57,238 nt of DNA from Candidatus Endobugula sertula (GTDB lineage Bacteria > Pseudomonadota > Gammaproteobacteria > Pseudomonadales > Cellvibrionaceae): assembly GCA_001723645.1 (NCBI GenBank), contig MDLC01000015.1, positions 1 to 57,238 of the forward strand, read 5' to 3'. The notes under the pieces are model-generated. The model saw only the letters and a program-made list of their open reading frames with translations, made no database searches and had not been told where the DNA came from. Each line of letters starts with the position of its first letter. Positions within the stretch are counted from its first letter, which is position 1. Both the position numbers and the translations under genes were made by a program. This document shows positions 3,879 to 57,238 of this stretch, piece by piece.

Positions 3879-3888
3879 GAGAAATTCC

Positions 3889-38987: not shown

Positions 38988-39161
38988 CGGGTTGTGCACC
39001 TCATGATTATGCTTTTCACTTGGTGCTTACGTAAGTATTGTGGCAAGCGATTTATTTTGTTACGAACTAATATGGATGCTCTCGCTAAAGACGTTGATTC
39101 ATCCCCCGATGATTACCAGTGGGAAAGGGCTGACCGCTTTAAAGTCGTTATCACTAAGGCG

Positions 39162-39326
39162 TTAAGACGACTTGAGATTAAAAACCAGTGCTCGAATGCC
39201 TACCTGAAATTGCACTTTCTTTAAATCTCGATAACGAACGTGTTTGTTGCGATGCGCAAACACATGTTCATAAGATGATCGCATCGCAGAAAACCAGCCA
39301 TCCTTACGACGATCTTTTCCTTTCAT
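39162..39326 (-). mobile_element. IS5/IS1182-type (DDE) transposase C-terminal remnant
   Basis: Hand translation ...MKGKDRRKDGWFSAMRSSYEHVFAHRNKHVRYRDLKKVQFQVGIRALVFNLKSS* fits the R..vEhvF...K.....RyRgL.K.......l.a...NL tail of these transposases. No catalytic domain lies upstream. Confidence 0.5.
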
Positions 39327-39440
39327 ATTGTTCTTTTGGGTCGTCGCGTTGTGGCAGCCTTTGTGCTTGAGTGCTCATAACCGTTCTCCTTTTTGTGTCG
39401 CTTTTTTGATACGGTAGAAAGTTGGATACTGCTTATTTAT

Positions 39441-40397
39441 CTATACGTTTATGCAATACCATTGAGGTGTTTTAATCGCCTGTAAATATCGCTTCGACTG
39501 CTTATCCCTTTGTAGAAACATGGGTGATTCATTCGTCACTTCAAAACCAAACTGTTTCGGTAAGCTGGTATACATTGACTTTGGCGGCAAGTCATAAATT
39601 TTTTTAATCTTTCGTCCTGTATCAAAGGTATGATAATAAATGATAGAAATTCCCAGTTCATTGCGAATAAAACGAATGGCTGCCGCTAATGATAATTCAG
39701 CCCAAAGCGTTTTATAAGGTTTTAGAATGACCTCTGCATATTCTTTAATATCTCCATATTCACAATGAATGCCATTAATCACATCGCCGGGTTTTGCCGT
39801 GTTTTCCTTGGAGAGATGTTTGTTTACGTGCTCCAGATCTCTATTGACGTCGCGTAACCAATCATTTTGCACCTCCTCAATTAATGCTTCCCCAGTAGAT
39901 AAATCTGCATCGATTCTTACCCATGACAAGGTTTTACGATAGCCCCTTCTAATAGGGTGACCTCTAAACTCAAATGGACCGTAGTTATCTGAAGGCTTTA
40001 ATAAGCGGTGATACTCCTGATTGTGCTTATTATCAAAATTAATTTGCAACACCAAATTCTGCTGATTTCTCGAAGTCTGGTCGTAGTCTCTGTCACCCTC
40101 CCCCCAGCGATCCAATGTTAGAGTAAAGGCCAGCGTGCCTTCATTCCAGTAAAGTGACACATCATCCTTGGTCAACATACCGTTACCACAACGTTTAGTA
40201 ATATTTTTCACTATAGGCTTGGTGGAAAAGCGTTGTAAAGGCGGCTTGTTTAACTCGCGTACTTGTAAGCTTTGCCTTTTGTTGTTTTCCATATACCAAT
40301 TAATCATATCTAAACAATAGCGGTCTTTAAGATAATAAAAGACTCTTCTTTCGTCACCTAAGCAATCGAGTATTTCGTCTAATTCTTTCTGTTTCAT
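39441..40397 (-). CDS. Uncharacterised protein, paralog A of the rtcB-prfH-linked gene
   Basis: 318 aa. Colinear with ORF 41581..42474: [104 protein letters not shown]. Confidence 0.7.
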   Translation of the reverse strand: MKQKELDEILDCLGDERRVFYYLKDRYCLDMINWYMENNKRQSLQVRELNKPPLQRFSTKPIVKNITKRCGNGMLTKDDVSLYWNEGTLAFTLTLDRWGEGDRDYDQTSRNQQNLVLQINFDNKHNQEYHRLLKPSDNYGPFEFRGHPIRRGYRKTLSWVRIDADLSTGEALIEEVQNDWLRDVNRDLEHVNKHLSKENTAKPGDVINGIHCEYGDIKEYAEVILKPYKTLWAELSLAAAIRFIRNELGISIIYYHTFDTGRKIKKIYDLPPKSMYTSLPKQFGFEVTNESPMFLQRDKQSKRYLQAIKTPQWYCINV

Positions 40398-40677
40398 AAT
40401 AGTACTTCTGATAGGAACATCTGATTAACCGATAAATATTTACTGAAGTATTTGTAAATGGGTCAATCTAGATAGTATTACATTCAATGTTTCACATTTT
40501 CTTATCGCTACTCAAGCGATAAGTCATTTTAGACAATTCTCACCTTTTAAACTGATAACAAATAGCGTTTAGTCAGTACTCAATTGGCTAAAGAGCACTT
40601 CATAAATACCGCCTGCGCATTTTTAGCCAAATTGTTATAGCGCACTTTCCGATATCCAAATGGTGACGTTCCATTAA

Positions 40678-41022
40678 ATGACAAAATTTACAAATGGTCG
40701 TCTCATCAGCGACTATCTCGCGCTGAGGCTTTGGGATAAAAAGGTTCAATGGTTTTACAAAGTGCTGACCAAGATAGAATCTCGTTCATTGGCTCCAGAA
40801 ACATCTCTTTGCGAGTCTTCTTACGACATTTTTCAAATTCTTGGTAAAATTGGCGGGCATAAAAAACACCGTAATTTAATGCGAATGATTTCAGAGCAAC
40901 AAAAAGCTATTGCTGAAATAAAAGCGGCGATGATTGCCGATGAGGATTTCGCGGAGAAATTCGCGGCTGAATTATTGGATGAACAAACCTATAAAAAAGT
41001 CATGTCTATCTTTGTACCGTGA
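40678..41022 (+). CDS. Hypothetical protein
   Basis: 114-aa ORF. Its stop overlaps the next ORF's start. No family recognised. Confidence 0.4.
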   Translation: MTKFTNGRLISDYLALRLWDKKVQWFYKVLTKIESRSLAPETSLCESSYDIFQILGKIGGHKKHRNLMRMISEQQKAIAEIKAAMIADEDFAEKFAAELLDEQTYKKVMSIFVP

Positions 41023-41255
41023 GAGGGCTTTTTGCTAACCCCCTTCATAGTGAACCAGAAGAATTAAAGGATCGGAGTTTGCCTGAAAGTCCTTTGGTGG
41101 AGGAGGATGATCCTGCCTTGGCACATTTGACCTATGAGAAAAAGGTCGAGGTGATTAAATCGTTATGGAAGATGATGTCATTGATGGTTGATATGGCGTG
41201 GGGCCTGGATAGTACACAACAATCTTTAACCGAAACCTTCCGTGGAACTGGGTAA
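41019..41255 (+). CDS. Hypothetical acidic protein
   Basis: 78-aa ORF, coupled to the preceding ORF. Confidence 0.35.
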   Translation: MRGLFANPLHSEPEELKDRSLPESPLVEEDDPALAHLTYEKKVEVIKSLWKMMSLMVDMAWGLDSTQQSLTETFRGTG

Positions 41256-41306
41256 GATTCTGGAAGTGTGGTACGACTAAAAGATAGCAAAAGGAGGGTA
41301 AAGAAT

Positions 41307-41390
41307 ATGGCAGAAGTCACAAAAGCATTAATTTATTGCCGTGTATCCAGTAAGAAGCAAAAGCAAGGGGACGGCTTGGAGTCAGGAACA
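41307..41390 (+). pseudogene. Serine recombinase N-terminal remnant
   Basis: A strong RBS aaggaggg precedes MAEVTKALIYCRVSSKKQKQGDGLES, which carries the catalytic-Ser motif Y.RVSS..Q of resolvase/large serine recombinases. Similarity ends after about 28 aa. Confidence 0.5.
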
Positions 41391-41580
41391 CCGCCGCCAG
41401 ACCTTACAAAAAATGAAAGCTTGTTATTGAGGAAAAAGCGGCGAATTCGGTCAAACCGCAGCGAGGTCGTGACGATACTTATATGTTCATGGCACCATAA
41501 GTTGGCCACCTTTTGACACCATAGATTGGCCGTTTTGTATAATATTTGTTCATTTGGTGCGTTTGTCTCCTGATCATACT

Positions 41581-42474
41581 CTAAATTGATAGGCGATACC
41601 ATTGGGTATTTTTAATAGCCTTTAGATATCTCCTAGCTTTTTTGTGTTGTTCTAAAAACCTAGGACTTTGACTGGTTACTTCAAATCCAAATTGCTTTGG
41701 TAACTTTGTGTACATAGATTTGGGCAGCAATCCGTAGATTTTCTTAATTTTTCGCCCTGTGTCAAAAGTATGATAATAGATGGTCGAAATACCCAGCTTG
41801 TTGCGGATAAATTGAATAGCCGCTAGTAGTGAGAGTTCCGCCCATAATCTCTTATAAGGCTCTAATATGACTTCAGCATAGTGTTTAAATTCATTATACT
41901 CACAGTCAATACCATGGATAATATCGCCGGGTTTTACTGTGTTTTTCCCAGCATAGCACCTTGTAACACGCTGCATATCCCAGGTAACTCTACGGATCCA
42001 ATCATTTTGTACCTCTTCAATTAATGCTTCTCCTGTCGTAGGATCAAAATCTATTCTTACCCAAGATAATGTTTTGCGGTTATTTTGCCTAATAGGATGC
42101 CCTCTATATTCAAATGGGCCATAGCTATCATAAGGTTTTAGTAAACTATGGTAGTGTTGGTTATGTTCATTGCCAAAATTGATTTGTAAAACCAGATTTT
42201 GCTGATTTCTAGGTGTTTGATCATAACCTCTTTCGCTGTCACCCCACCGATCAAGTGTTAATGTAAAAGTTAATACATCATTGGGCCAGTAAGATTTAAG
42301 ATTATCTATTGGTAAATAACCATTGCCGCATCGTTTGATAATGTTTTTAACAATCGGTTTTGCGGCAAATAACTCTAAATAATAGCGATCCTTAAAATAA
42401 TGAAAGCCCCTTCTTTCATTACCTAAGCAATACAGTACATCCTCTAAATATTTACTCGTTAAAATCTCTACCAT
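41581..42474 (-). CDS. Uncharacterised protein, third gene of the rtcB-prfH operon (paralog B)
   Basis: 297 aa. The start overlaps the prfH stop by 23 nt. Shares long identical blocks with 39441..40397 but lacks about 25 aa near the N-terminus. Confidence 0.75.
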
Positions 42475-43135
42475 AAAAAGTACGTATAGGTTTACCCCTT
42501 TGCACTTCGTAGTGCTGTGACCATCGTGAACGTTCGAGTGATTTATTTTCTAAATCGTTTTGATTTGCCAGCAATAGTTGCAAACGCTCTAATGCGATTT
42601 GCTTATTTCTATGCTGGGAACGGTCTGATTCAACACGCACTTTTAAACCAGTTGTGCGATGAGTGATACGAACCGCACTATTGGTCTTATTGACATGTTG
42701 ACCACCTGGCCCTTTTGACCGCATAGTCTCCATATCGACTTCCTTCACTAATTCGTTGAACGTCTTCATACTATTACTAGGCATTGATAATGTCGCAATA
42801 CCCACGAACCAGTTGATGCGTTTATGCTTAGGTCGATAAGGGCTTTCACCTTGCCATTTAATAGTTCCTTGCCATTTATGAGCAAACCCATCAACCCCTT
42901 TGCCTTCTAAGCGGATCAATATCGACAAAAATGCATCAGGCTCAATCAATGTCTGATTTCGCAATAACTTATCAAATGCTAAGCTCTCAACGATTTCAGC
43001 AGACAGATTTTCTCTGTATGCTTCATCCAATAGAACTCGACTGAGCTGAGCAATAACCCAGCCGCATTCTTTAGGGCCTTGACCAGCCGTCAGTTGTAGC
43101 CATACAACTGACGATTTTTTATGCTTTGTTTCCAT
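42452..43135 (-). CDS. prfH: Peptide chain release factor H (PrfH)
   Basis: 227 aa. The RF-like GGQ domain reads [20 protein letters not shown] without a codon-recognition domain of RF1/2 size. Lies 2 nt downstream of rtcB, as in known rtcB2-prfH pairs. Confidence 0.88.
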
Positions 43136-43137
43136 AT

Positions 43138-44373
43138 TTATGTTCTCCGTGTTTTATAGGTGAGTAATGGTTTAAAGGTTGCAACGATATCAACCATACC
43201 GGCTTCCGCTAAGTCGCTCACCACCTGACTAATATTTTTGTAGGCTTGTGGGGCCTCTTCATAAAGTAGATCTCTTTGCTTACAAATAACACGGCTACCT
43301 AGTGAAGTTTTCTCTAAGTCTTTTACCTTAAAACGCTTTTCTAAGCGGCCTCGAGCATCACTGCGTTTCCATTTTCGGCCTGCACCATGTGCTAGAGAAA
43401 AACCTCCAAGAGCCAATGCACTTAGCTCATTAACTCTAGGTTTAACAAGATAACTTAAACTACCTCGAGATCCAGGTATCATTACTAAGCCCTTATTCGT
43501 TGGGCTTGCACCTTTACGGTGTATCCAATAACGTCTTTCTGAATCGATGTCTGACTTTGCGGCTGATTTTGCAGAAAGCCCCATTAGCTCAGTCTCAACA
43601 CTTGATAAAGCTTCAACCATATTGTGGGTGACATCGAACAAATAGCGTTGCTTTGTCTTTAACTGCTGACAAAAACGTTCTGCAATAAGTTCTCGATTTG
43701 CTTCAGCCCAACGGATAGCGTAATTGTGACGTTTTTGATACTGTTCATACTGATATTCATCTTGTATGGTTTCTAATGATTTTGAACCTAGGTTATCAAC
43801 ATGATCGCGAAGTATTTTTTGCCCTAAACCTCTAGAGCCGCTATGTACGAGTAAAAACACATGCTTTTTATCAATACCTAATCCATCAAATACATCACTA
43901 TCAATAATCTCATGAATCTGTTGCAATTCAGCAAAGTGATTATCGCCACCTATTGTTCCTAACTTGTGATGCTCTGTTAATGAAAAATCACCTTCAATTA
44001 TTAGACTGCGATCGCCCAACCATTCTTCCCTATTGCCATTCCATAGTTCATCAAGCCCAACAAGTTGTTTTTCCCATTTGTCTAATTTGACCTTTCTGGT
44101 CGGAATATCTAATTGCCATAAACCCATGCCACAACCAATATCACTACCCACCATATGGGGGTAGATACAGTTTTCCGTTACAAAAGCGGCGCCAATGGGT
44201 TGCCCTTTTCCTGGGTGTAGATCTGGCATACCAATACCGATACGCATACCCGGTAATTCCATTGTTTTTTTCAGCTGCGTAATGGCAGCGTCTTCTAACC
44301 AATTTTTGTCAGAGCTAATAATGCTCGTTCGACGATCCTCAGCTGTTTCGATATTTTTAAATAAAGTACTCAT
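43138..44373 (-). CDS. rtcB: RNA 3'-phosphate/5'-OH ligase RtcB (PrfH-associated type)
   Basis: [35 protein letters not shown] and HGAGR motifs. 411 aa. Confidence 0.93.
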
Positions 44374-44486
44374 ACAATTTACTTGTTCTATTTTTTCCTA
44401 TATGTCATCTTTCGGCGCAAGTTCGCCCCTCCTGAATCATACATTCAAGTTAAAAAATGACAGGCAATAAGTCTTAACAGTTAATA

Positions 44487-44612
44487 GCGGTGCAAGGATG
44501 CGCCGCCACTGGTCGACAGACCAGTGCGAACCCCTTAAAAACAAGGAGCTTCACATAGCTTCGCCAGTTTTTAAGGGGTGACAGTTAAATAGGTTAGGAT
44601 GACCTATTTAAC
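44487..44612 (-). ncRNA. Candidate structured RNA / leader: four consecutive hairpins upstream of rtcB-prfH
   Basis: Four stems on the plus strand: gcggtgca/tgcgccgc (44487-44506, 7 of 8 bp), cactggtc/gaccagtg (44507-44526), ccccttaaaaac/gtttttaagggg (44531-44578, 12 bp) and gttaaataggt/acctatttaac (44584-44612, 11 bp). No ORF and no U-tract. Strand is not determined from sequence. Confidence 0.35.
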
Positions 44613-44725
44613 TATATAATTAGTAACTGCAATAAATTTTAAATATGCAAAGCTAAACTAAAGCTTCAATAAAGAGCCAGAGATTAAAAATGTTTGTCTG
44701 AATGGATATAGCAGTAAGAAAAAAT

Positions 44726-44938
44726 TTAGCTATAAGAAGCTTGGCGCCCGCCTTCCGGTACCTTTGTTCGCATTTTATGGACTTGTGAATAAGCATATCC
44801 CTTAAATTTCGCCCAGCAGCCTTTATGCAAGAATAATTGTCTTTTCTCTCTTACCATTTCGCCAACCGCTGTACTGTATAAAACACAGTTTCGAGGTACA
44901 AATAAAGAATCGATAATATATTGTGTTTTACTACCCAT
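44726..44938 (-). CDS. Small basic hypothetical protein downstream of cca
   Basis: 70-aa ORF. No family recognised. Confidence 0.3.
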   Translation of the reverse strand: MGSKTQYIIDSLFVPRNCVLYSTAVGEMVREKRQLFLHKGCWAKFKGYAYSQVHKMRTKVPEGGRQASYS

Positions 44939-44978
44939 TGTCTTTCATCCTGTTGAGTACTATTCCTCTAAAGTCTTT

Positions 44979-46241: not shown

Positions 46242-46987
46242 TATATTGTTACGACTAAGTTCTCATTAAAGTTTGGGTTATAGCTATCTGGATAACCTCT
46301 TGGATTACAAATAATACGGCAGTTACCTATGGAGTAATCATAACTTTGGTGCAAATGACCGTGAATCCAAAGATTTGGACTGTACTCCAAAATAAAATCA
46401 TCTAAATCAGATACATAGGCAGCGCTCGTCATATCGCTTGCCTTTTTCTCTGAAAGAGACATTCTACTAGGGCCGTGGTGACTTATAACAACATTTTTAT
46501 ACCCTTTATAAGTGGTTAGTTCACGTTCAAGCCAATGAAGTGAATGTTTATGGATAATAGCCGTATCTATCGACCTTAATTTTGAGTACTTGGGAGAAAC
46601 TCGAATCTTCTTGTAGTCATTCATTATCTGTTGACAGTGAAAACCTGCAATCCGAGGATCGCCAAAAAGCTCAAAATCTGTCCATAATGTACAGCCAAAG
46701 AAATTAATATTACCTAAAGTAACCAACTCTTTTTCTAAAATATGAATGTTTGTGTCTTTAGCCATCGCTTTCATTTCATGAATATATTTCGGATACGCTT
46801 TACCGTAAAATTCATGGTTGCCTAGTACATATAAGACGGGTTTATCAGGTATATTTTTTAATGCCCACTCTATTCCTTTTCCTTTTACATGGATATCACC
46901 AGCAAGAATGACAATGTCACACTCCGGCAAGGTTAGTTCCAAATTAGCAAACTCTATATGTAGATCACTTAATATTAATAACTTCAC
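46241..46987 (-). CDS. Calcineurin-like metallophosphoesterase
   Basis: LSDLHIE, AGDI, GNHEFY, HHGP and GHLH motifs. The stop overlaps the cca start (TAATG). Confidence 0.85.
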   Translation of the reverse strand: MKLLILSDLHIEFANLELTLPECDIVILAGDIHVKGKGIEWALKNIPDKPVLYVLGNHEFYGKAYPKYIHEMKAMAKDTNIHILEKELVTLGNINFFGCTLWTDFELFGDPRIAGFHCQQIMNDYKKIRVSPKYSKLRSIDTAIIHKHSLHWLERELTTYKGYKNVVISHHGPSRMSLSEKKASDMTSAAYVSDLDDFILEYSPNLWIHGHLHQSYDYSIGNCRIICNPRGYPDSYNPNFNENLVVTI

Positions 46988-47023
46988 GTTATACTTCTGA
47001 TAGTTTTTTCATATGTAAAGGGT

Positions 47024-47048
47024 AAAACCGCCAGCAAGCTGACGGTTA
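47024..47048 (-). terminator. Probable terminator after the SPFH gene
   Basis: aaccgccag-caag-ctgacggtt hairpin (8 of 9 bp), followed on the minus strand by a short TTTT run. Confidence 0.5.
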
Positions 47049-47052
47049 TCGG

Positions 47053-49536: not shown

Positions 49537-49578
49537 TACCTTGCGCCAAAAAATAAATCCATATGTGAATACACCAGC

Positions 49579-49875: not shown

Positions 49876-49908
49876 AATCCCTCCTGTGAGCTAGTGAGAA
49901 TATTTAGG

Positions 49909-49980
49909 GGTGACCGATGGGACTCGAACCCATATATACTTGAGCCACATTCAAGCGCATTACCGATCTGCCACGGCCAC
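49909..49980 (-). tRNA. tRNA-His (GTG), no encoded CCA (CCT) and no G-1
   Basis: Hand fold: GTGGCCG TG GCAG ATCGGTA ATGC G CTTGA ATGTGGC TCAAG TATAT ATGGG TTCGAGT CCCAT CGGTCAC C. Followed by CCT, and position -1 is T. Confidence 0.75.
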
Positions 49981-50011
49981 ACCTAAATATTCTGGGTAAT
50001 AAGAAATAATT

Positions 50012-50086
50012 TGGTCCGCCCGGTAGGATTTGAACCCACACCTGTCGGCTTAAAAGGCCGATGCGCTACCATTACGCCACGAACGG
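50012..50086 (-). tRNA. tRNA-Lys (TTT), CCA encoded
   Basis: Hand fold: CCGTTCG TG GCGT AATGGTA GCGC A TCGGC CTTTTAA GCCGA CAGGT GTGGG TTCAAAT CCTAC CGGGCGG A CCA. Confidence 0.85.
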
Positions 50087-50091
50087 AAAAT

Positions 50092-50170
50092 TGGCACCTG
50101 ACACAGGACTCGAACCTGCATCTCCCCGCTTCGTAGGCGGGTGCTCTAAATCCAATTGAGCTAATCAGGC
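50092..50170 (-). tRNA. tRNA-Arg (ACG), CCA encoded
   Basis: Hand fold: GCCTGAT TA GCTC AATTGGATTTA GAGC A CCCGC CTACGAA GCGGG GAGAT GCAGG TTCGAGT CCTGT GTCAGGT G CCA. Confidence 0.85.
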
Positions 50171-50176
50171 AAAATT

Positions 50177-50250
50177 TGGAGCCCAATACAGGACTCGAAC
50201 CTGTCTCTACTGCTTACAAGGCAGTTGCACAGCCGCTATGCCAATCGGGC
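50177..50250 (-). tRNA. tRNA-Thr (TGT), CCA encoded
   Basis: Hand fold: GCCCGAT TG GCAT AGCGGCT GTGC A ACTGC CTTGTAA GCAGT AGAG ACAGG TTCGAGT CCTGT ATTGGGC T CCA. Confidence 0.85.
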
Positions 50251-50290
50251 AAGTTAAGAAATTTTGTGAAATAAAAGACTGGAATCCTTT

Positions 50291-51487
50291 CTAGCCTTTT
50301 ACGTTGACGATTTGACGAAGCGTATGAACAACGTCAACAAGATCAGTTTGGTTATCCATAACATCATCAATTGGCTTATACGCCATGGGAATCTCATCGA
50401 TTACACCTTTGTCTTTACGGCATTCAATCCCCTCTGTTGCAGATACAAGATCACTTACAGAATAGGTTTTTGCAGCCGCAGTTCGACTTAGGCGACGTCC
50501 AGCGCCGTGAGAGCAAGAACAGAACGATTCTGATTCACCTTTACCACGAACAATAAAACTTTTATCGCCCATAGACCCAGGAATAATACCCAAATCATCT
50601 TTTCTTGCGCGGATAGCGCCTTTACGTGTAACCCATACGTTTTTACCAAAATGGTTTTCCTTTTCCACATAGTTATGATGACAATTGATGGCTTCTTGAG
50701 TGACCGCAAACGCTGGAAGATGTTTACGTAGCTCCATCATCACTGCATTCATCATATGTGTACGATTCAATGCAGCATAATCTTGCCCCCAAGATACTGC
50801 TTCGATGTAATCATCGTAATATTCTGATCCTTCAGATAGATAAGCCAAATCTTTATCGGGCAAATGGATCATCCATTTTTCCATTTCACGTTTCGCGATC
50901 TCGATAAAATGCATTCCAATTTTATTACCGATACCACGGCTTCCTGAATGCAGCATAATCCATACGTCTTGATTTTCATCCAAACACAACTCGATAAAGT
51001 GATTCCCTGAACCTAGCGTACCTAACTGCTTTGCAAAGGCATCATACTTAATACGTTTACTTATTTGAGGATGCTTCTCGAAGATAGTACTTAAACGCAT
51101 TGAAATATCATGGCCACCTGCAATTTTAGGGTCACGATGTTTTCCGCCTGCCCCCAAAGGCACAACAGATTCAATACGACTGCGAATAGCTTTCAAATTA
51201 TCAGGCAGATCTTTTGCCTTTAGCGATAGACGCACGGCATTCATACCACAACCAATATCCACGCCTACTGCAGCAGGGATAATCGCTTTATCGGTCGCGA
51301 TTACTGAACCCACAGTCGCTCCTTTACCCAAATGAACATCTGGCATTGCTGCTACATGTTTATAGACAAAGGGTAAATTCGCTACTCGGCTTAATTGTGC
51401 CTGTGTGTTGTAATCAATATCATCTGTCCAGATTTTTACAGGCACACGCTGATCTTTATGCGTTGCCAATACTTTTTTAATGGTCAT
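50291..51487 (-). CDS. rtcB: RNA ligase RtcB embedded in the tRNA array
   Basis: MPDVHLGKG, GVDIGCGM, GSGNHFIELC, HSGSRGIGN, HNY and HGAGR motifs. 398 aa. Lies 30 nt downstream of an oversized tRNA-like gene and 40 nt upstream of tRNA-Thr. Confidence 0.95.
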   Translation of the reverse strand: MTIKKVLATHKDQRVPVKIWTDDIDYNTQAQLSRVANLPFVYKHVAAMPDVHLGKGATVGSVIATDKAIIPAAVGVDIGCGMNAVRLSLKAKDLPDNLKAIRSRIESVVPLGAGGKHRDPKIAGGHDISMRLSTIFEKHPQISKRIKYDAFAKQLGTLGSGNHFIELCLDENQDVWIMLHSGSRGIGNKIGMHFIEIAKREMEKWMIHLPDKDLAYLSEGSEYYDDYIEAVSWGQDYAALNRTHMMNAVMMELRKHLPAFAVTQEAINCHHNYVEKENHFGKNVWVTRKGAIRARKDDLGIIPGSMGDKSFIVRGKGESESFCSCSHGAGRRLSRTAAAKTYSVSDLVSATEGIECRKDKGVIDEIPMAYKPIDDVMDNQTDLVDVVHTLRQIVNVKG

Positions 51488-51517
51488 AATTGCCTCCTTT
51501 AGTTATTTTATAATGAC

Positions 51518-51658
51518 TGGTTGGAGGTATAGGAATAACCTAAGCGCGTCCTGCGCTTAGCCTTTCAGATGCAAAGCAGTTCAAAATGCTCCCGGCATTT
51601 TGTCGAACCCATCTCGCCGGGGCAAAAACCCGGTGCTCAGCCACTAAGCCAACCTCCA
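51518..51658 (-). tRNA. Oversized (141 nt) tRNA-like gene with a 74-nt T-loop. The 7-nt anticodon loop reads TTTTTGC (UUU). CCA encoded.
   Basis: Hand fold: TGGAGGT TG GCT TAGTGGCTG AGC A CCGGG TTTTTGC CCCGG CGAG ATGGG [TTCGA CAAAATGC-CGGGA-GCATTTTG AACTGCTTTGCATCTGAAAGG CTAAGCGC-AGGAC-GCGCTTAG GTTATT] CCTAT ACCTCCA A CCA. Acceptor pairs 7/7 and T-stem 5/5. Confidence 0.6.
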
Positions 51659-51668
51659 GTTAAGTAAT

Positions 51669-51818
51669 TGGAGCGATGTATGGGAATCGAACCCATTTCC
51701 TCTGCTTGGACTGCTTTGCAGGAGCAAAAGCAGGACATCATGTAGTGGTGGTTGCGAAGCAATTGTGTATAGGGATATACACAACAACGCAGGTACCTCA
51801 CCATTCGGTTAACATCGC
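51669..51818 (-). tRNA. Oversized (150 nt) tRNA-like gene with an ~80-90 nt insertion in the anticodon arm. Anticodon undetermined. CCA encoded.
   Basis: 5' part: GCGATGT TA ACC GAATGGTGA GGT A CCTGC. 3' part: GCAGA GGAA ATGGG TTCGATT CCCAT ACATCGC T CCA. Acceptor pairs 7/7. The insert holds the hairpins TTGTGTATA-TCCC-TATACACAA and CTGCTTTTGC-TCCT-GCAAAGCAG. Confidence 0.55.
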
Positions 51819-51824
51819 ATAAAT

Positions 51825-51902
51825 TGGTCTGGGTGGTAGGGTTTGAACCTACGACCTTTGGGTTCCAAACCCAACACGCTAACCAAACTGCGCTACACCC
51901 AG
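51825..51902 (-). tRNA. tRNA-Pro (TGG), CCA encoded
   Basis: Hand fold: CTGGGTG TA GCGC AGTTTGGTTA GCGT G TTGGG TTTGGAA CCCAA AGGTC GTAGG TTCAAAC CCTAC CACCCAG A CCA. Confidence 0.9.
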
Positions 51903-51910
51903 AATAAATT

Positions 51911-52052
51911 TGGCGGTTCATACCACTTCCCATAAATAGAGAGGGAACCGGTGATCTCTCGGCTTATTCACATGAATGTAATGTATGCCGATTTTGCAGG
52001 AGCAAAAATCGGTGACAACCGAGCGCATTAAACCTGACTATGCTAATGAACC
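51911..52052 (-). tRNA. Oversized (142 nt) tRNA-Asp(GTC)-like gene with a 49-nt insertion after the anticodon loop and an expanded T-loop. CCA encoded.
   Basis: Hand fold: GGTTCAT TA GCAT AGTCAGGTTTA ATGC G CTCGG TTGTCAC [CGATTTTTGC-TCCT-GCAAAATCGG CATACATTACATTCATGTGAATAAG] CCGAG AGATC ACCGG [TTCCC TCTCTATTTAT GGGAA] GTGGT ATGAACC G CCA. Acceptor pairs 7/7. Confidence 0.6.
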
Positions 52053-52057
52053 TTAAT

Positions 52058-52133
52058 TGGTGGAGACCGTGGGAATCGAACCCACCACACAGTGCTTGCA
52101 AAGCATCGTCGCCCCCTTGATACATGGGCCCCC
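52058..52133 (-). tRNA. tRNA-Ala (TGC) with G3:U70, a poorly paired D-arm, CCA encoded
   Basis: Hand fold: GGGGGCC CA TGTATCAAGGGGGCGAC GATGC TTTGCAA GCACT GTGTG GTGGG TTCGATT CCCAC GGTCTCC A CCA. The G3-T70 wobble is present. No convincing D-stem. Confidence 0.7.
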
Positions 52134-52138
52134 AATTT

Positions 52139-52293
52139 TGGAGTGCGAGGCTGGGTGAAAGAAGTGTTGTTAGCAAAGCACTGCTTTGTACTTCTTGAAC
52201 GCCCAAAACTTATAATTTTTGGCCGGCCCGCTTGCGGCAAACCAGCGTATACGGAGGTTGCAGCTCCGCGCATCGTCTCTCTGCCACTCGCAC
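52139..52293 (-). tRNA. Oversized (155 nt) tRNA-Cys(GCA)-like gene with an 87-nt T-loop. U73, CCA encoded.
   Basis: Hand fold: GTGCGAG TG GCAG AGAGACG ATGC G CGGAG CTGCAAC CTCCG TATAC GCTGG [87 nt, including AAGAAGT..ACTTCTT and AAAGC-AGT-GCTTT hairpins] CCAGC CTCGCAC T CCA. Acceptor, anticodon and T stems all pair perfectly. Confidence 0.6.
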
Positions 52294-52310
52294 AAAATAG
52301 TTATTCAGAT

Positions 52311-52384
52311 TGGCAACAGCGTCAGGATTCGAACCTGGAATACCGGAGTCAAAGTCCAGTGTGTTACCGTTACACCACGCTGCT
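52311..52384 (-). tRNA. tRNA-Gln (TTG), G73, CCA encoded
   Basis: Hand fold: AGCAGCG TG GTGT AACGGTA ACAC A CTGGA CTTTGAC TCCGG TATT CCAGG TTCGAAT CCTGA CGCTGTT G CCA. One T-stem mismatch. Confidence 0.8.
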
Positions 52385-52392
52385 ATATTTTT

Positions 52393-52481
52393 TGGTCGTG
52401 AGGAGCGGGTTTGAACTCTCGCAGCACTCTTGTTACTGTGCGGATTAGCAATCCGCTGCCTTACCACTCGGCCACATTTCC
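52393..52481 (-). tRNA. tRNA-Ser(GCT)-like, probably defective (acceptor and T stems do not pair)
   Basis: Type II D-arm GCCGAGTGGTAAGGC, anticodon arm GCGGA TTGCTAA TCCGC, and a long variable arm. The 5' strand GGAAATG pairs at only 3 of 7 positions with CCTCACG, and the T-stem GAGAG/CCGCT is poor. Confidence 0.5.
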
Positions 52482-52487
52482 AATAAT

Positions 52488-52629
52488 TGGTTGCGGTGGC
52501 TGGAATAACCAAAGTACTTTCTGTACTTTGCTCTGCGAGTGCTTCGCTGCTCAAAATGCTCCAGGCATTTTGTCGAACCAACAAGTTCGGGCATATGAAA
52601 CCCGCGAGTAGCCATAGCTCAACACCGCT
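52488..52629 (-). tRNA. Oversized (142 nt) initiator-like tRNA (CAT) with the same 74-nt T-loop architecture as 51518..51658. CCA encoded.
   Basis: Hand fold: AGCGGTG TT GAGC TATGGCT A CTC G CGGGT TTCATAT GCCCG AACTT GTTGG [TTCGA CAAAATGC-CTGGA-GCATTTTG AGCAGCGAAGCACTCGCAGAG CAAAGTAC-AGAAA-GTACTTTG GTTATT] CCAGC CACCGCA A CCA. There is a 1:72 A-A mismatch, and the 3' end CCGCAACCA resembles remembered E. coli tRNA-fMet. Confidence 0.6.
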
Positions 52630-52640
52630 TCAAATAGTAG

Positions 52641-52715
52641 TAGGCCAAGGCGGATTCGAACCGCTCCTTATCCCGCTTATGAGGCGGGTGCATTCACCGA
52701 TTATGCTATTGGCCT
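52641..52715 (-). tRNA. tRNA with CAT anticodon (Met/Ile2 type), no CCA encoded
   Basis: Hand fold: AGGCCAA TA GCAT AATCGGTGA ATGC A CCCGC CTCATAA GCGGG ATAAGG AGCGG TTCGAAT CCGCC TTGGCCT A. Followed by CTA. Confidence 0.75.
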
Positions 52716-52725
52716 AATTTAAAAT

Positions 52726-52809
52726 TGGTGTAGGCAGATGGAGTTGAACCACCAAAGCTTTCGCGACCGGGTTACAACCGGCTAGAGTCACCACGTCTCT
52801 TCTGTGTAC
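52726..52809 (-). tRNA. tRNA-Tyr (GTA), type II, with two central acceptor mismatches. CCA encoded.
   Basis: Hand fold: GTACACA GA AGAG ACGTGGTGA CTCT A GCCGG TTGTAAC CCGGT CGCGAAAGCTTT GGTGG TTCAACT CCATC TGCCTAC A CCA. An alternative 5' strand GCAGGTA (to 52813) pairs 6/7 but leaves a 6-nt connector. Confidence 0.65.
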
Positions 52810-52818
52810 CTGCATAAT

Positions 52819-52895
52819 TGGCTCCGGCAGTTGGGATCGAACCAACGAACTCCTGATTAACAGTCAGGCGCATTACCACTCTGCTTCACACCGGA
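52819..52895 (-). tRNA. tRNA-Asn (GTT), CCA encoded
   Basis: Hand fold: TCCGGTG TGAAGCAGAGTGGTAATGC G CCTGA CTGTTAA TCAGG AGTTC GTTGG TTCGATC CCAAC TGCCGGA G CCA. The D-stem is shifted (GCA/TGC). Confidence 0.8.
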
Positions 52896-52902
52896 ATAAA
52901 AT

Positions 52903-52979
52903 TGGTACAGTGAGCTGGACTCGAACCAGCACTCTCCTGATCTTCAATCAAGCGCTCTACCAATTGGAGCTATCACTGC
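52903..52979 (-). tRNA. tRNA-Phe (GAA), CCA encoded
   Basis: Hand fold: GCAGTGA TA GCTC CAATTGGTA GAGC G CTTGA TTGAAGA TCAGG AGAGT GCTGG TTCGAGT CCAGC TCACTGT A CCA. Confidence 0.9.
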
Positions 52980-52987
52980 CGTTTTAT

Positions 52988-53173
52988 TTGGCACGCGGTG
53001 AAAGAAAAGTATCAAACCTCATCGAGGAGTGGAACGACAGCAATAAAATTGATCCTGAACGGCTAGAAGACCAGCTCACACCAGAGCGTTATAGGGCGCT
53101 ATTTGATACCCTCGTAGATTGGAATGACTATCTTGACAACCATGCACCGGATATCAAGGAGTTGTTGCTATGA
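52988..53173 (+). CDS. Small hypothetical protein upstream of mobC (start uncertain, TTG)
   Basis: The part of track ORF 52910..53173 that lies outside tRNA-Phe. Its stop overlaps the mobC-like start (ATGA). Confidence 0.3.
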   Translation: MARGERKVSNLIEEWNDSNKIDPERLEDQLTPERYRALFDTLVDWNDYLDNHAPDIKELLL

Positions 53174-53598
53174 ACAATTCTGCGAACCTCAAACAAGCGT
53201 TTGAAACCTCTAGCGCTCAAAATACCATCAAACCTAAAAAGCAGTATGCACGAACATTTTCTATGCGTCTTACGGATGGTGAACGTGATTTCTTAGACCA
53301 GCATAGCGGCTCTTTGTCATGGTCTGGCTATATCCGCAAGCGTGTCTTTGGTGAAAAAGCCGAAAAACGTCGCCCTGTAAAACGAGCTGTGCCAGATACG
53401 GCGCTACTAGCTCAAGTTCTCGCAGAGCTAGGCGCTTCCCGTTTATCTGCCAATATCAACCAACTGGCAAAACACGCCAATATGGGAACGCTGGACGTTT
53501 CGCCTGAAACTGAGCGCGAGATTGAAAGCGCCTGCCGTGAAATCCATACCCTGCGTATGCTGTTGATTGCTGCCTTGGGTGTTCAGCCAGAGGATTAG
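53170..53598 (+). CDS. MobC-like relaxosome accessory protein
   Basis: RHH-like N-terminal part (FSMRLTDGERDFL) and the ELGASRLSANINQLAKHANMG motif typical of MobC-family mobilisation proteins. Immediately upstream of the relaxase. Confidence 0.8.
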   Translation: MNNSANLKQAFETSSAQNTIKPKKQYARTFSMRLTDGERDFLDQHSGSLSWSGYIRKRVFGEKAEKRRPVKRAVPDTALLAQVLAELGASRLSANINQLAKHANMGTLDVSPETEREIESACREIHTLRMLLIAALGVQPED

Positions 53599-53600
53599 AG

Positions 53601-54734
53601 ATGATATTGCACGGCAATCAACGCGGCGGCGCTAAAGATATGGCGCTTCATCTTATGAAAGATGAAAACGAACATATTGAGGTGTACGAGATCAGAGGCT
53701 TTGCTTCTGAAAACCTCATAGGGGCTTTTAACGAAGCCTATGCCATTAGCCGCGCCACACGTTGTAAGCAATTCCTATACTCTCTAAGCTTAAACCCGCC
53801 ACCGGATGAGCAGGTATCTACTGAAAGCTTTAAAAAAGCCATTAATCAGGCTGAACAACGGCTAGGGCTGGATAATCAGCCCCGCGTTATTGTTTTCCAT
53901 GAAAAGCAGGGGCGTAGGCATTGCCATGTTGTCTGGTCACGAATTGATAGCTCTGAATTAAAGGCCATACGGCTTCCTTTTACCAAGTTGAAATTACGGG
54001 AGTTATCCCGCGAATTATTCCTAGAGCATGGCTGGGCTATGCCCGAAGGTTTGCGGGATTCCCACAACCGTGACCCGCGTAATTTTACCTTGGCAGAATG
54101 GCAGCAAGCCAAACGCACAGGCAAGAACCCCAAGCAGGTTAAGGCCGTATTCCAAGAATGCTGGAATATTAGCGATACACAAAGCGCTTTTGCCAATGCC
54201 CTAAAAGAGCATGGTTATATCTTGGCGCGTGGTGATCGGCGCGGCTTTGTTGCGGTGGATTTTAAAGGTGAAGCTTTCGCCGTGTCTAAATGGGTTGGCA
54301 TTAAAGCAAAAGACGTTAAAGCCAAACTCAACGAAGCGGATAAGTTGCTTCCATTTGCAGACGCTAAAGCACACATGGCAAATGCTATGGCGGCAACATT
54401 GCAAAAGGCTCAAGAGCAGCAAAATACCGCTATTCGTGAGCGCCAAAATCAGCTTGAGGCAAGACTTGAAGCCATGGCCATGCAACATAAGCAAGAACGC
54501 CAAAATCTGGAACAAACACAAGATATACGCCGTATTGAAGAAACCAAAACCCGCCAAGCCAGATACAGCAAAGGCTTACGAGGCCTATGGCAACGCCTGG
54601 ATAAGTTCAGGGAACAGGGGCAAAAGCATATCACTCAAGACATACAACAATACCGCGAAATCCAACAACATAAGCGGGATACGTTCAGCATGACAGACCC
54701 ACAAAAACATAGGGGTAGAGGGCTTGAGCGTTAA
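53601..54734 (+). CDS. Relaxase / mobilisation nuclease (MobA/VirD2-type)
   Basis: N-terminal relaxase domain with HCHVVWSRI (His-triad region), then a long Q/E-rich coiled-coil tail. 377 aa. Confidence 0.88.
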   Translation: MILHGNQRGGAKDMALHLMKDENEHIEVYEIRGFASENLIGAFNEAYAISRATRCKQFLYSLSLNPPPDEQVSTESFKKAINQAEQRLGLDNQPRVIVFHEKQGRRHCHVVWSRIDSSELKAIRLPFTKLKLRELSRELFLEHGWAMPEGLRDSHNRDPRNFTLAEWQQAKRTGKNPKQVKAVFQECWNISDTQSAFANALKEHGYILARGDRRGFVAVDFKGEAFAVSKWVGIKAKDVKAKLNEADKLLPFADAKAHMANAMAATLQKAQEQQNTAIRERQNQLEARLEAMAMQHKQERQNLEQTQDIRRIEETKTRQARYSKGLRGLWQRLDKFREQGQKHITQDIQQYREIQQHKRDTFSMTDPQKHRGRGLER

Positions 54735-54822
54735 TTAATTGGTTAAATTTGACTCAAACAGCAAAAAAGTTGTATGCTTAAACATATATGTGTTTATACG
54801 CTTATTTATAGAGGTAACTATC

Positions 54823-55059
54823 ATGACACGTTGGAGTCTTGTTGTTAATAACGAAACCGATCAAAGCTTACGTGCTTTTCTGGGTCAGAAAGGTGCGAAA
54901 AAAGGTGATTTATCCAAATTCGTAGAAGAAGCCGTACTGGATAAATTACTGGCTGAAACAGCAGAAATGATTAAAGAGCGTAATGCTGCCGATGATCAAA
55001 TGAATATTATGAGTACAGTAAATGAAGCATTAGAGGCTGTACGTGCGCATAGTTCTTGA
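54823..55059 (+). CDS. Ribbon-helix-helix antitoxin
   Basis: An RBS gaggt precedes ATG 54823. 78 aa with an MTRWSLVVNNETDQSLRAFL beta-strand start. Its end overlaps the PIN gene. Confidence 0.7.
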   Translation: MTRWSLVVNNETDQSLRAFLGQKGAKKGDLSKFVEEAVLDKLLAETAEMIKERNAADDQMNIMSTVNEALEAVRAHSS

Positions 55060-55459
55060 TACAGGCATTTTAGTTAGCGCATTAATCACCAAAGATACGC
55101 CGCCTGATTGGTTGTACCAATCATGGTGTAAACAAGCCTTTACGCTTGTCACCTCTGAAGAGCAACTGGAAGAAATAAAGCGTGTACTGTCTTATAAAAA
55201 GCTCGAACGTTTTATCAATCAGTCCGAAGCACAAATTCTGCTAGAAGCTCTCCACCGAAAAGCAGATATTGCAACAGACCTACCTTTTGTTGAACTATCA
55301 CCTGACCCTGATGATAACCGTATTATTGCCACGGCGCTGGCTGGGCAAGCGGATTATCTGGTATCAGGCGATAAGGCGGATTTATTGAGCCTTGGCATGG
55401 CTCATGATATTCCCATTCTTACTGCTCGGCAGATGGCAGAACGCTTGAAACTGGGTTAA
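55043..55459 (+). CDS. PIN-domain toxin
   Basis: IVLDTGILVSALI (the first acidic residue), D...D in DPDDNRIIATA and SGD. 138 aa, GTG start. Confidence 0.8.
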   Translation: MRIVLDTGILVSALITKDTPPDWLYQSWCKQAFTLVTSEEQLEEIKRVLSYKKLERFINQSEAQILLEALHRKADIATDLPFVELSPDPDDNRIIATALAGQADYLVSGDKADLLSLGMAHDIPILTARQMAERLKLG

Positions 55460-55475
55460 ATAACAAAGCCATTTA

Positions 55476-56027
55476 TCAATTGAAAAAGTCTCGAATGTCC
55501 ATAATTGCACCTTTCCCGTTAAGGTGCTGGCGCATTTGATTTAGCTTTTCATAAATTGTGACAGTATATATTCCGTTAAAGCTGCCATATATCTTATGGT
55601 CTTCCCCCGTTTCACAATATTTAGGGTTATCCAATGTGTGAAAAGTTCTACAGTGAAATGGCCTTACCTCATATATCGTACATTCGCCTTCATCACCAAG
55701 AAAAGGACAAGGGCTAGTATGTCCGGTAGAAGCAATTAATTGTCTGGGCTTTCTCTTTCGACGGGTCTCTTCCTCTATAAGTTTTGCTTCTAATTCAGTG
55801 ATCGTGACATCAATTTTGCAGCAGTGAGAACATCCTTTCGAGCAAACAGAGAAGGTTTTAACAAAGTCACCATAATCTTCTAAATATTTGTAAATATCTT
55901 TTAGCTTCAAAATAGCTCTTTTATTTTTAGATTGAAGTGTGCTCAGTAACTTCTTGCACTTAATAGCTAATTCATTAGGGATAGCAGGTAATACCGTTTC
56001 TTCACTTTTATCTTTAAACTTTATCAT
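55476..56027 (-). CDS. YkgJ-family cysteine-cluster (Zn/Fe-chelating) protein
   Basis: CSKGCSHCCK (CxxCxxCC) plus a second C-rich block CPFLGDEGECTIYEVRPFHCR. Confidence 0.8.
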   Translation of the reverse strand: MIKFKDKSEETVLPAIPNELAIKCKKLLSTLQSKNKRAILKLKDIYKYLEDYGDFVKTFSVCSKGCSHCCKIDVTITELEAKLIEEETRRKRKPRQLIASTGHTSPCPFLGDEGECTIYEVRPFHCRTFHTLDNPKYCETGEDHKIYGSFNGIYTVTIYEKLNQMRQHLNGKGAIMDIRDFFN

Positions 56028-56147
56028 TATACGACCTCTGATAACCTCTACGATTAAATCATGATGATATTGATGCCAAAAAAGTGGCTAGTTACACCTT
56101 AGCTGAGAGTAACAAAATAAGTGAACAAAGACGACGATAAGAGGAAC

Positions 56148-56336
56148 CTAAAATGAGGTATTAGGTACTTTTTTAATATAATCACGAACGGCGATGAGTA
56201 TAGGGCTTAGATCTTCGTCTTTGCTATGAATCATCTTCAAAACCGTATCCTCGCTATCGGCTAGATCACAAAGCATAGAGCCATACATTTTCATGTAGCT
56301 GCGGTATTTGCGTTTAAGCTGTGCTGGTGTTGTCAT
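56148..56336 (-). CDS. Small hypothetical protein downstream of the resolvase
   Basis: ORF from an internal ATG (MTTPAQLKRKY...). Overlaps the resolvase 3' end. Confidence 0.35.
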   Translation of the reverse strand: MTTPAQLKRKYRSYMKMYGSMLCDLADSEDTVLKMIHSKDEDLSPILIAVRDYIKKVPNTSF

Positions 56337-56925
56337 TGCTGGAAGTCCTTTTTTTCTGAGGGGTATATTCATTTAAGATGCGGCTGAGAGTGCGGGTAGA
56401 GATGCCAAATTCTTTGGCTATCTCTTTATGAGTGTATTGCTGTTGGGCTTTCATTTTGAGGAGTGCGCGGGTTTTACGCTGTGATAGTTTACGCCGCCGC
56501 CCAAGGTGTTTGCCGTTTTGTCGGGCGATTTCCAACCCTGCTTTGGTTCGCTCTGAAATAATATCGCGCTCAAGCTCTGCAAAGGCATTGCGGATGGTAT
56601 ACATGCACTTACCCATCGGGGTTGTTGTGTCGATAGCTTCCGTCAAACATTTAAACTCAAGGCCGCGTTGCTGAAATAAATCTAATACGTCTAGTGCGTT
56701 TCTAACCGAACGGAAGGCACGGTCAAATTTCCAAATCACCAGCACATCACCATACTGCATAGACGCAATAGCGCTGTCGAAGCCTGGGCGTGATTTAGCG
56801 ATAGCGGACACGCCCAAGTCTTCGAAGATATTATTCTGCTCACACCCTGCTAATATCAGGGCTTTGCGTTGTAGGTCTAAATTCTGTTCACTGGTGCTAA
56901 CCCGCGCATAACCAATCAAGGCCAT
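56314..56925 (-). CDS. Serine recombinase (resolvase/invertase family)
   Basis: MALIGYARVSTSEQNLDLQ (catalytic Ser), VWKFDRAFRS, and a C-terminal HTH HKEIAKEFGISTRTLSRIL. Confidence 0.92.
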   Translation of the reverse strand: MALIGYARVSTSEQNLDLQRKALILAGCEQNNIFEDLGVSAIAKSRPGFDSAIASMQYGDVLVIWKFDRAFRSVRNALDVLDLFQQRGLEFKCLTEAIDTTTPMGKCMYTIRNAFAELERDIISERTKAGLEIARQNGKHLGRRRKLSQRKTRALLKMKAQQQYTHKEIAKEFGISTRTLSRILNEYTPQKKRTSSNDNTSTA

Positions 56926-57238
56926 AAATCCTCCCATAAAATAATGTCTTCCCTATAACGGTAGACAAAACCGAACGTTTCTGTCTTATAGCCATAAGAT
57001 CACCCAGTCAATAAAAAAGAGAGAAAAAGGCGTTAAAAACGGGCGTAAACAGCCATTTTTTAAGCACAAAATAATCTTATGGAATTATGACGAAATCCTT
57101 CGATTGCGGCGGCTATTAATCTATTGATATTGCTTACTTTTTCTTGTTCTGTATGGGCAGATGCATATTCCACTCCAAGATGAACACCTTCTCCAATTGA
57201 AAATGATCACCCCCTGCGATTAAACGTGATCAGTCTCT

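Follow-up and report, generated by a model that had tools for sequence, protein, structure and literature searches.

Whether genes that stand beside a relaxase and a resolvase form one mobile element with them is the question raised by the right-hand part (38990-57238) of a contig of Candidatus Endobugula sertula, the bryostatin-producing symbiont of the bryozoan Bugula neritina. The stretch analysed here, called the window below, is the entire contig of 57,238 bases, so that its right end lies outside the assembly and the right boundary of the region is not visible. A preliminary description of this DNA had read 38990-57238 as a mobilizable island that carries, between mobility genes, functions for repair of the translation apparatus. 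We find that about 41.6-53.0 kb of the window is one conserved co-directional cluster and not a chance collection of genes. This cluster is probably a partly eroded copy of a conserved RNA-damage-response cluster, with the mobility module as a separate neighbour, and its range is a marine gammaproteobacterial clade related to Endobugula and Cellvibrionaceae. The description as a mobilizable island is only partly supported.

Homologues of two proteins of the cluster, an HNH endonuclease and a protein that we call X, served as handles to recover contigs that bear it. The same gene order, on one strand, is present in three other marine gammaproteobacterial contigs, named here L085, L087 and L093. 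In L085, a contig of 4.38 Mb, the first half of the cluster consists of six tRNA genes, RtcB (91% identical to its counterpart in the window), three tRNA genes, a cREC-like gene, HNH and tRNA-Met, and the second half of a Band_7 protein (77%), Cca (81%), RlaP, a second RtcB (68%), PrfH (68%) and X; collinearity with the window holds at the nucleotide level from 39456 to 52416. L087, which extends contig L084, has a divergent RtcR, then RtcB, RtcA, seven tRNA genes and the same order down to X, with a Cca that is 76% identical in L084 and L087. L093, a metagenome contig, starts with RtcR, RtcB, RtcA, five tRNA genes, HNH, a tRNA gene and SPFH, and continues with a HEAT-repeat protein, Cca (78%), RlaP, RtcB, PrfH and X. 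In these last two contigs the canonical rtcR/rtcB-rtcA unit immediately precedes the tRNA array and shares its strand (L087 3577-7936, L093 1-3972). The window differs from all three in having a metallophosphoesterase gene between SPFH and cca, in having lost most of RlaP, and in having no rtcR or rtcA; tblastn with RtcR and RtcA of L087 gave no match in the window. The preliminary description had seen a coherent repair set in these genes, and with a conserved co-directional cluster in three other contigs the set is tighter than had been claimed. The identity of cluster proteins to their L087 counterparts is 56-76% (only 41% for the short cREC-like protein); for core proteins compared with L088, a contig from the same sequencing run as L087, it is 63-72%. 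Since the divergence of the cluster is similar to that of the core, there is no sign of recent import.

The surroundings of the cluster change from genome to genome. It is flanked by NA37 and ordinary metabolic genes in L087, by holin and lysozyme genes in L085, by tRNA-Met, rpoD and dnaG in L093, and by the HAD hydrolase gene and transposase-like debris in the window. At L093 15986-16072 a tRNA-Met gene comes after rpoD and dnaG, and 10 nt separate its 3' end from the end of the cluster; such a tRNA 3' end is a classic site of island insertion, and the fetched part of this contig contains no integrase. Partial versions also exist. L086, with the closest HNH homologue (82% identity), has only nine tRNA genes, RtcB, a cREC-like gene, a DUF6717 protein and HNH, amid ordinary metabolic genes; L044 has 18 tRNA genes, HNH, SPFH, RtcA, RtcB and an ArfB-like rescue factor; and in L094-L096 a related cca (66-68% identity) is found with no cluster genes nearby. 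We also scanned loci of array-type RtcB homologues, taking one genome per species and keeping 80 loci. X adjoins rtcB in 19 of the 80, HNH in six and SPFH, a recurrent RtcB partner, in 14, where it is directly upstream of rtcB; at least two tRNA genes lie just upstream in 9 of the 60 loci that were scanned for tRNAs.

Features of the right-hand part of the window and its borders (positions are those of the window)
Feature	Coordinates	Strand	Evidence or remark
6S RNA	36971-37145	-	Rfam RF00013, 87 bits; between ygfA and zapA
HAD hydrolase/nucleotidase yrfG	38331-38987		profile search
Left junction: gene-order break, then transposase-like fragments	38988..39440	.	
X2, second, diverged copy of the X family, 318 aa	39441-40397	-	
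Two small ORFs (114 aa, 78 aa), then N-terminal remnant of a serine recombinase	40678..41516	+	
X1, third gene after rtcB and prfH, 297 aa	41581-42474	-	23-nt overlap with the end of prfH
prfH, release-factor homologue	42452-43135	-	TIGR03072, 209 bits (cut-off 166.65)
PrfH-linked RtcB ligase ('RtcB2' in the literature)	43138-44373	-	NF007153, 503 bits (cut-off 407)
RlaP remnant, pseudogene of RNA-ligase-linked nucleotidyltransferase	44738-44917	-	between cca and PrfH-linked rtcB
cca, multifunctional CCA-adding/repair enzyme with HD domain	44979-46241	-	NF008137, 609 bits (cut-off 451)
Phage-type metallophosphoesterase	46241-46987	-	PF00149; phrog_1649, E = 4.6e-51
SPFH/Band_7 protein	47053-48207	-	PF01145
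tRNA-Met(CAU)	48542-48618	-	between HNH and SPFH; ARAGORN and Rfam (68 bits)
HNH endonuclease	48985-49536	-	PF14279 and PF01844
cREC-like protein, 98 aa	49579-49875	-	PF20274, E = 7e-4, under the family cut-off
tRNA block His, Lys(UUU), Arg(ACG), Thr(UGU)	49907..50250	-	ARAGORN, Rfam
Canonical RtcB ligase inside the array	50291-51487	-	PF01139, E = 1.7e-129, full length
tRNA block Pro, Ala, Gln, pseudo-Ser, Met/Ile2-like, Tyr, Asn, Phe, with tRNA debris	51603..52979	-	
Plasmid-type module: MobC, relaxase, RHH-PIN, CxxCxxCC protein, 74-aa ORF, resolvase	53170..56925	.	Pfam
MobC	53170-53598		Pfam
Relaxase	53601-54734		Pfam; looks intact
RHH_6 protein of the RHH-PIN pair	54739-55059		Pfam
PIN_3 toxin	55043-55459	+	Pfam
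Resolvase, small resolvase/invertase type	56314-56925		Pfam
Short palindromic repeat at contig end	57157..57238	.	hairpin arms 57199-57210 and 57226-57237

The cluster is made of two modules, namely a long tRNA array, accompanied as is usual for such arrays by HNH, a canonical RtcB and a cREC-like protein, and a second group with SPFH, the metallophosphoesterase, Cca, the RlaP remnant, the PrfH-linked RtcB, PrfH and X. Profile searches confirmed HAD, PrfH, both RtcB proteins, Cca, the phosphoesterase, SPFH and HNH, and each class of gene named in the preliminary description, X included, lies close to its stated position. In the second module, prfH and its rtcB are on the same strand with a gap of 2 nt. 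PrfH has its GGQ motif at residues 144-146, and the linked RtcB, which also matches TIGR03073 (438 bits against a cut-off of 271.8), is 27% identical to the RtcB of the array.

The gene for X follows prfH in L085, L087 and L093 also, and X follows canonical RtcB in SPFH-RtcB-X cassettes. Conserved gene order is the only tie of X to RtcB. The two copies in the window (locus tags AB835_05810 and AB835_05820, from a protein look-up) share 62% amino-acid identity; X1 lacks 25 residues that X2 has, yet none of the 27 invariant residues of the family is missing from it. X had no match in Pfam, NCBIfam, PADLOC, PHROGs or PDB sequences. A profile search gathered 942 representative clusters of the family at E <= 1e-3, nearly all of them of about 315 residues. 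The AlphaFold2 model of X is confident (mean pLDDT 93), and Foldseek against the PDB returned non-significant GNAT matches only; the family may have a divergent GNAT-like core.

Cca enzymes rebuild CCA ends and have phosphoesterase activity, and the position of cca in the window is the same as in L084, L085, L087 and L093. Next to it, the RlaP remnant corresponds to residues 118-177 of the 300-residue RlaP of L085 (97% identity), a protein that is intact in L085, L087 and L093 and that restores nucleotides removed by certain nucleases (PMC12776372). The metallophosphoesterase is absent from L084 and L085. Jumbo phages carry homologues with 40-46% identity, one of them, in Caulobacter phage CcrPW, inside the tRNA array of the phage. 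Going by conserved gene order, this enzyme probably heals 2',3'-cyclic or 3'-phosphate RNA ends.

In the first module ARAGORN predicted 12 tRNA genes between 48542 and 52979, all on the minus strand, and Rfam supported 10 of the 12 and gave one more marginal match. Several details of the array recur in relatives: a tRNA-Met at the matching position in L084 and L085, a cREC-like homologue of 97-98 residues at the matching position in L006, L084, L085 and L086, the tRNA order Thr-Arg-His in L085, and nucleotide matches between the block at 51603..52979 and the tRNA region of L085. The array with its second rtcB and HNH is thus present, as the preliminary description had it, and it is partly decayed. 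The pseudo-tRNA-Ser (52406-52481) has a broken acceptor stem, and neither tRNA-His (49907-49980), which ends in CCC, nor the second 'Met' gene encodes a CCA end. This 'Met(CAU)' gene (52640-52715, minus strand) presumably resembles E. coli tRNA-Ile2, which is read as Ile after lysidine modification. Because tRNA halves (T-arm, acceptor, CCA) are found in the gaps 51490-51825, 52132-52311 and 52481-52640 (minus strand), and 51603-51710 is 88% identical to the tRNA-Gly/Lys region of L085, the array was formerly longer. No housekeeping tRNA genes are in the window for comparison with those of the array. The isoacceptors include His, Tyr, Asn, Arg-ACG, Lys-UUU and Gln, which are targets of known nucleases; this match is no strong sign of tailoring, since larger arrays span nearly all amino acids. 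Scans for promoters and terminators found sites no more numerous than in shuffled sequence, and the window yielded no regulator for the array.

Homologues of the HNH of the window directly adjoin 27-tRNA arrays on the megaplasmids of Methylibium PM1 and Variovorax WDL1, and another one, with 44% identity over the HNH core, adjoins the 24-tRNA array of Nostoc PCC 7120 plasmid delta. Published work on such long tRNA arrays (PMC8421152) describes a conserved neighbouring HNH gene, rtcB nearby, horizontal spread and induction under translational stress. A Cellvibrionaceae metagenome-assembled genome (L006, 3656-7200) has a 16-tRNA array with RtcB, a cREC-like gene and HNH, preceded by the NAD-salvage genes for an isochorismatase/PncA-like protein, NAPRTase and NAD synthase.

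To the right of the array, Pfam confirmed the MobC-relaxase pair, the RHH-PIN pair and the resolvase of the preliminary description. The relaxase has a histidine motif (H100...H107xH109) and is 40-47% identical to plasmid relaxases (47% to that of a Sphingobium plasmid, 40% to that of NC_001520, a 4.1-kb plasmid of Acidithiobacillus ferrooxidans). Because this relaxase is of genuine plasmid type, our reading of 53.0-57.0 kb is that a module derived from a plasmid was acquired separately and took the place of the head of the cluster. No replication gene was identified in the module. The PIN superfamily includes tRNA- and rRNA-cutting VapC toxins, so the membership of PIN_3 in it means that an RNA-damaging toxin may sit 2 kb from the repair cluster.

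The right end of the module could not be extended. Megablast of the whole 18-kb region against plasmids gave no match, and exact-protein look-ups with the resolvase and relaxase led only to a Logan contig of 4,369 bases, collinear with 52819-57187, which neither prolongs the sequence nor hints at a circular form. Logan contig L001 stops at 57187 of the window, and a 48-residue gene fragment at 57060-57203 (minus strand) had no match in the fetched loci. The palindromic repeat at the contig end has an inverted copy at 32-65 (34 nt, 85% identity, GTGATCA...TGATCAC); its presence at both ends probably reflects a multi-copy element that broke the assembly. At the left end, a class IV aminotransferase ORF (17-532, minus strand) seems to be truncated by this repeat of about 34 nt. 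Closing of the contig as a circle through a split aminotransferase gene was rejected; the similarity of the ends is limited to the 34-nt palindromic repeat, and the right-end fragment, judged by eye, is unlike an aminotransferase.

On the left, the window is ordinary chromosome up to about 38,990, with pst genes, phoU, an M48 peptidase, yaaA, ygfA, 6S RNA, zapA and yrfG. The gene order in relatives L089 and L090 is ygfA, zapA, an inositol-phosphatase gene, HAD, hslR, hslO and pckA, and HAD is directly followed by hslR in L088 also. In the window this conserved order ends at the stop codon of HAD and transposase-like fragments follow; hslR, hslO and pckA were not found anywhere in the window by tblastn. 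The left edge of the preliminary description is consequently a real gene-order break at about 38990 beside transposase-like fragments, and its 'IS5 tail' is a weak match to DDE_Tnp_1_6 (39162-39326, minus strand, E = 0.005). Two independent Logan contigs end at 39209, which fits a repeated sequence beginning there. The truncated serine recombinase, which had been placed on the right, is on the left, between X2 and X1; about 25 residues of an N-terminal motif, ALIYCRVSSKKQ, can be read from the translation of ORF 41268-41516 (plus strand), and neither this remnant nor the small ORFs within 40678..41516 have a Pfam match. Segments of the left- and right-edge junctions match none of the fetched loci. 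The cluster is thus placed just beyond a rearranged site after yrfG, with debris, X2 and the recombinase remnant on its left and the plasmid-type module on its right.

Some further observations concern this left side. The ORF just past HAD (39060-39180, plus strand) contains SPDDYQWERADRFKV, which appears similar to the N-terminal DNA-binding region of IS630-family transposases; a 76-residue ORF after HAD was considered as an hslR remnant and ruled out, as it is not hslR. The 6S RNA between ygfA and zapA is the usual gammaproteobacterial layout and shows that the left part of the window belongs to the core chromosome. In relatives an inositol-monophosphatase-family gene of about 280 codons sits between zapA and HAD; at 37700-38330 of the window it is reduced to an 18-residue trace (37775-37828), a loss that suggests gene decay in the symbiont. 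Far to the left (2892-3908, minus strand) lies a class II tRNA-synthetase-like protein (PF00152) of 338 residues, the size of EpmA/PoxA-type EF-P lysyltransferases, and the GC content of the surrounding 1-7 kb (0.34-0.39) is below that of the rest of the window.

Taken together, the genes allow a model of how the cluster would act. The breaks made by RNA-cutting toxins have 2',3'-cyclic-phosphate and 5'-OH ends. By analogy with the E. coli homologues, PrfH would recognise ribosomes in which the decoding centre of 16S rRNA is cut and would release the stalled peptide, and its partner RtcB would then reseal the 16S rRNA, as the array RtcB, like E. coli RtcB, would reseal cut tRNAs. Damaged 3'-CCA ends would be rebuilt by Cca, and gene order suggests that the processing of phosphate ends falls to the metallophosphoesterase and to the cREC-like protein. 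The tRNAs of the array may replace damaged housekeeping tRNAs or shield them as decoys, as work on Anabaena would predict, and SPFH and X may take part as partners conserved in gene order. In relatives, the arrangement of the genes is such that the whole set may be transcribed from an RtcR-controlled promoter. The E. coli PrfH pair, described as a two-gene operon, rescues and religates colicin E3-cut ribosomes (PMC9304027, PMC9223846), and cREC domains, which are associated with RNA ligases, are predicted to be enzymes that process cyclic phosphates (PMC7824862). The earlier proposal of a counter-measure to RNA-cutting toxins agrees with what has been published on the functions of PrfH and its RtcB, of canonical RtcB, of Cca and of long tRNA arrays.

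The preliminary description had joined cargo, MobC, relaxase, toxin-antitoxin pair and resolvase in one element, and one could still imagine that the whole of 38990-57238 is an integrative mobilizable element whose MobC, relaxase and serine recombinase move the cargo with a conjugative helper. Conserved order is indeed broken exactly after HAD, where L088-L090 have an intact HAD-hslR junction, with transposase-like debris at the break, and the relaxase seems intact with its histidine triad and has MobC beside it. Mobile elements typically have a toxin-antitoxin pair and a resolvase, the cluster occupies different chromosomal places in different genomes, and the remnant at 41268-41516 is that of a second serine recombinase. 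We nevertheless consider this improbable. The scan for mobility proteins covered the 80 array-RtcB loci, L084-L087 and L093-L136, and MobC, relaxase, RHH, PIN and resolvase had no match in about 85 related loci, including L085, L086, L087 and L093; cargo and mobility genes occur together in none of these loci. The GC content at third codon positions is 0.44-0.50 in MobC, relaxase and resolvase, against 0.31-0.37 in the cluster and 0.35-0.41 in core genes. No direct or attachment repeats bound the region within the window, which holds no intact integrase, and upstream of mobC there is no convincing inverted repeat of the kind seen at a transfer origin (oriT). The resolvase is of the small type, unlike the large serine integrases, the module adjoins tRNA-Phe on its 5' side rather than the 3' end of a tRNA gene, the cluster has diverged from its nearest relative about as much as core genes have, and the visible flanks are ordinary genes in L086 and L087 and, on the one side visible in L093, tRNA-Met and rpoD-dnaG. 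An origin of the region as a decayed part of a large phage or prophage is far less probable still. It is true that tRNA arrays, RtcB, HNH, Cca and metallophosphoesterase are often phage-borne, that jumbo phages combine tRNAs with RtcB and cREC proteins (PMC7824862), that the metallophosphoesterase matches phrog_1649 and has its homologue within the CcrPW array, that Cca matches phrog_2244, and that RtcB proteins of large phages show 59-64% identity with the array RtcB. However, the window has no phage genes for structure, replication or lysis, and a scan of the viral contig collection gave, at the sensitivity used, no relatives of X or SPFH. Each gene has its closest relatives among cellular sequences, and at the head of the cluster relatives carry rtcR-rtcBA, a cellular operon.

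A more serious competitor, though we think it rather unlikely, is an old, vertically inherited housekeeping or stress operon that holds the only cca of the genome, was moved by rearrangement, and answers internal translational stress (RNases of the cell's own toxin-antitoxin systems, antibiotics) rather than competitors or phages. The similar divergence of cluster and core, host-like base composition, RtcR, a stress-responsive activator, at the head of the cluster in relatives, induction of the long tRNA arrays and rtcB of Anabaena by translational stress (PMC8421152), and a cca that scores as a standard gammaproteobacterial Cca are all as such an operon would have them. Its spread, however, is patchy and modular, since L086 has no SPFH-to-X half and L094-L096 have cca alone; the E. 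coli PrfH-linked RtcB is specific for colicin-E3-type damage (PMC9304027); and HNH-marked arrays are typical of plasmids and horizontally spread (PMC8421152). We prefer an eroded RNA-damage-response cluster beside a separate mobility module, and several points weigh against it in turn. With RlaP lost, at least one tRNA pseudogene and no rtcR or rtcA, the copy is eroded, so that it may be weakly functional or unregulated here; its function in Ca. E. sertula is predicted from genes and homologues; and cca may be either an extra copy or the only one in the genome. The intact HAD-hslR junction of L088 implies that the cluster is elsewhere in that relative, provided that L087 and L088 are one organism; as the two share a sequencing run only, the empty site in a cluster-bearing relative is provisional. 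Finally, the upstream flanks of L085 and L093 are only partly seen, so mobility genes further out are possible, and a composite island is possible too, given a broken HAD-hslR junction and a mobility module that adjoins the array.

If the cluster is what we propose, ribosome repair by PrfH and RtcB, RtcR-controlled tRNA repair and long tRNA arrays are joined in one place, which suggests a single coordinated response to RNA-cutting toxins; were the set co-transcribed in relatives, spare tRNAs would be deployed together with repair enzymes as one damage regulon. More tentatively, and as something possible rather than probable, X may be an unrecognised component of RtcB repair, long tRNA arrays may belong to an RtcR-controlled response (one damage regulon if co-transcribed), or both. 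Candidates for experiments are the family of X, the SPFH protein and the phosphoesterase of phage type. The symbiont has kept most of the cluster while a neighbouring gene decayed. For annotation, the locus advises caution, as mobility genes beside cargo do not make an island.

The components are mostly known; what is new is the fusion of modules in one cluster, the recurrent partners X and SPFH and the link of the array to rtcR-rtcBA in relatives, and some of these links may already have been described. Small mobilizable plasmids and integrative mobilizable elements share with the window MobC with a relaxase, presumably of MOBQ type, a toxin-antitoxin pair and a resolvase; unlike them, the module here is chromosomal, no replication gene, oriT or attachment sites were found in it, and its link to the cargo is seen nowhere else. 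The RNA-repair and tRNA regions of jumbo phages (PMC7824862) have tRNA arrays, RtcB, cREC, phosphoesterases and HNH as well, and the metallophosphoesterase is of a phage family, whereas the setting of the window is cellular and SPFH, PrfH and X were not found in the viral contigs scanned. Likeness to RtcR-regulated rtcBA (PMC7790460, PMC5175333) lies in the canonical RtcB and in L087 and L093, where the cluster follows rtcR-rtcB-rtcA on the same strand; the window differs in having neither rtcR nor rtcA, the head of its cluster being replaced by the mobility module. With the L-arrays (PMC8421152) the window has in common dense tRNA genes on one strand, a homologous HNH, rtcB and RNA-processing genes nearby, and a patchy distribution that includes plasmids. 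Its array differs in being partly decayed and shorter, with about 12 intact genes where the arrays scanned have 24-27 and PMC8421152 reports up to 43, in having RtcB and the cREC-like gene inside it, in being fused to a module with SPFH, Cca, PrfH and X, and in its host, a gammaproteobacterial symbiont. The adjacent, co-directional pair of PrfH-linked RtcB and GGQ-bearing PrfH, both above NCBIfam cut-offs, is as in the rtcB2-prfH operon (PMC9304027, PMC9223846). The published operon has two components, whereas the window, L085, L087 and L093 add X as a third conserved gene, and in the window the pair is embedded in a cluster of at least ten genes that includes tRNAs.

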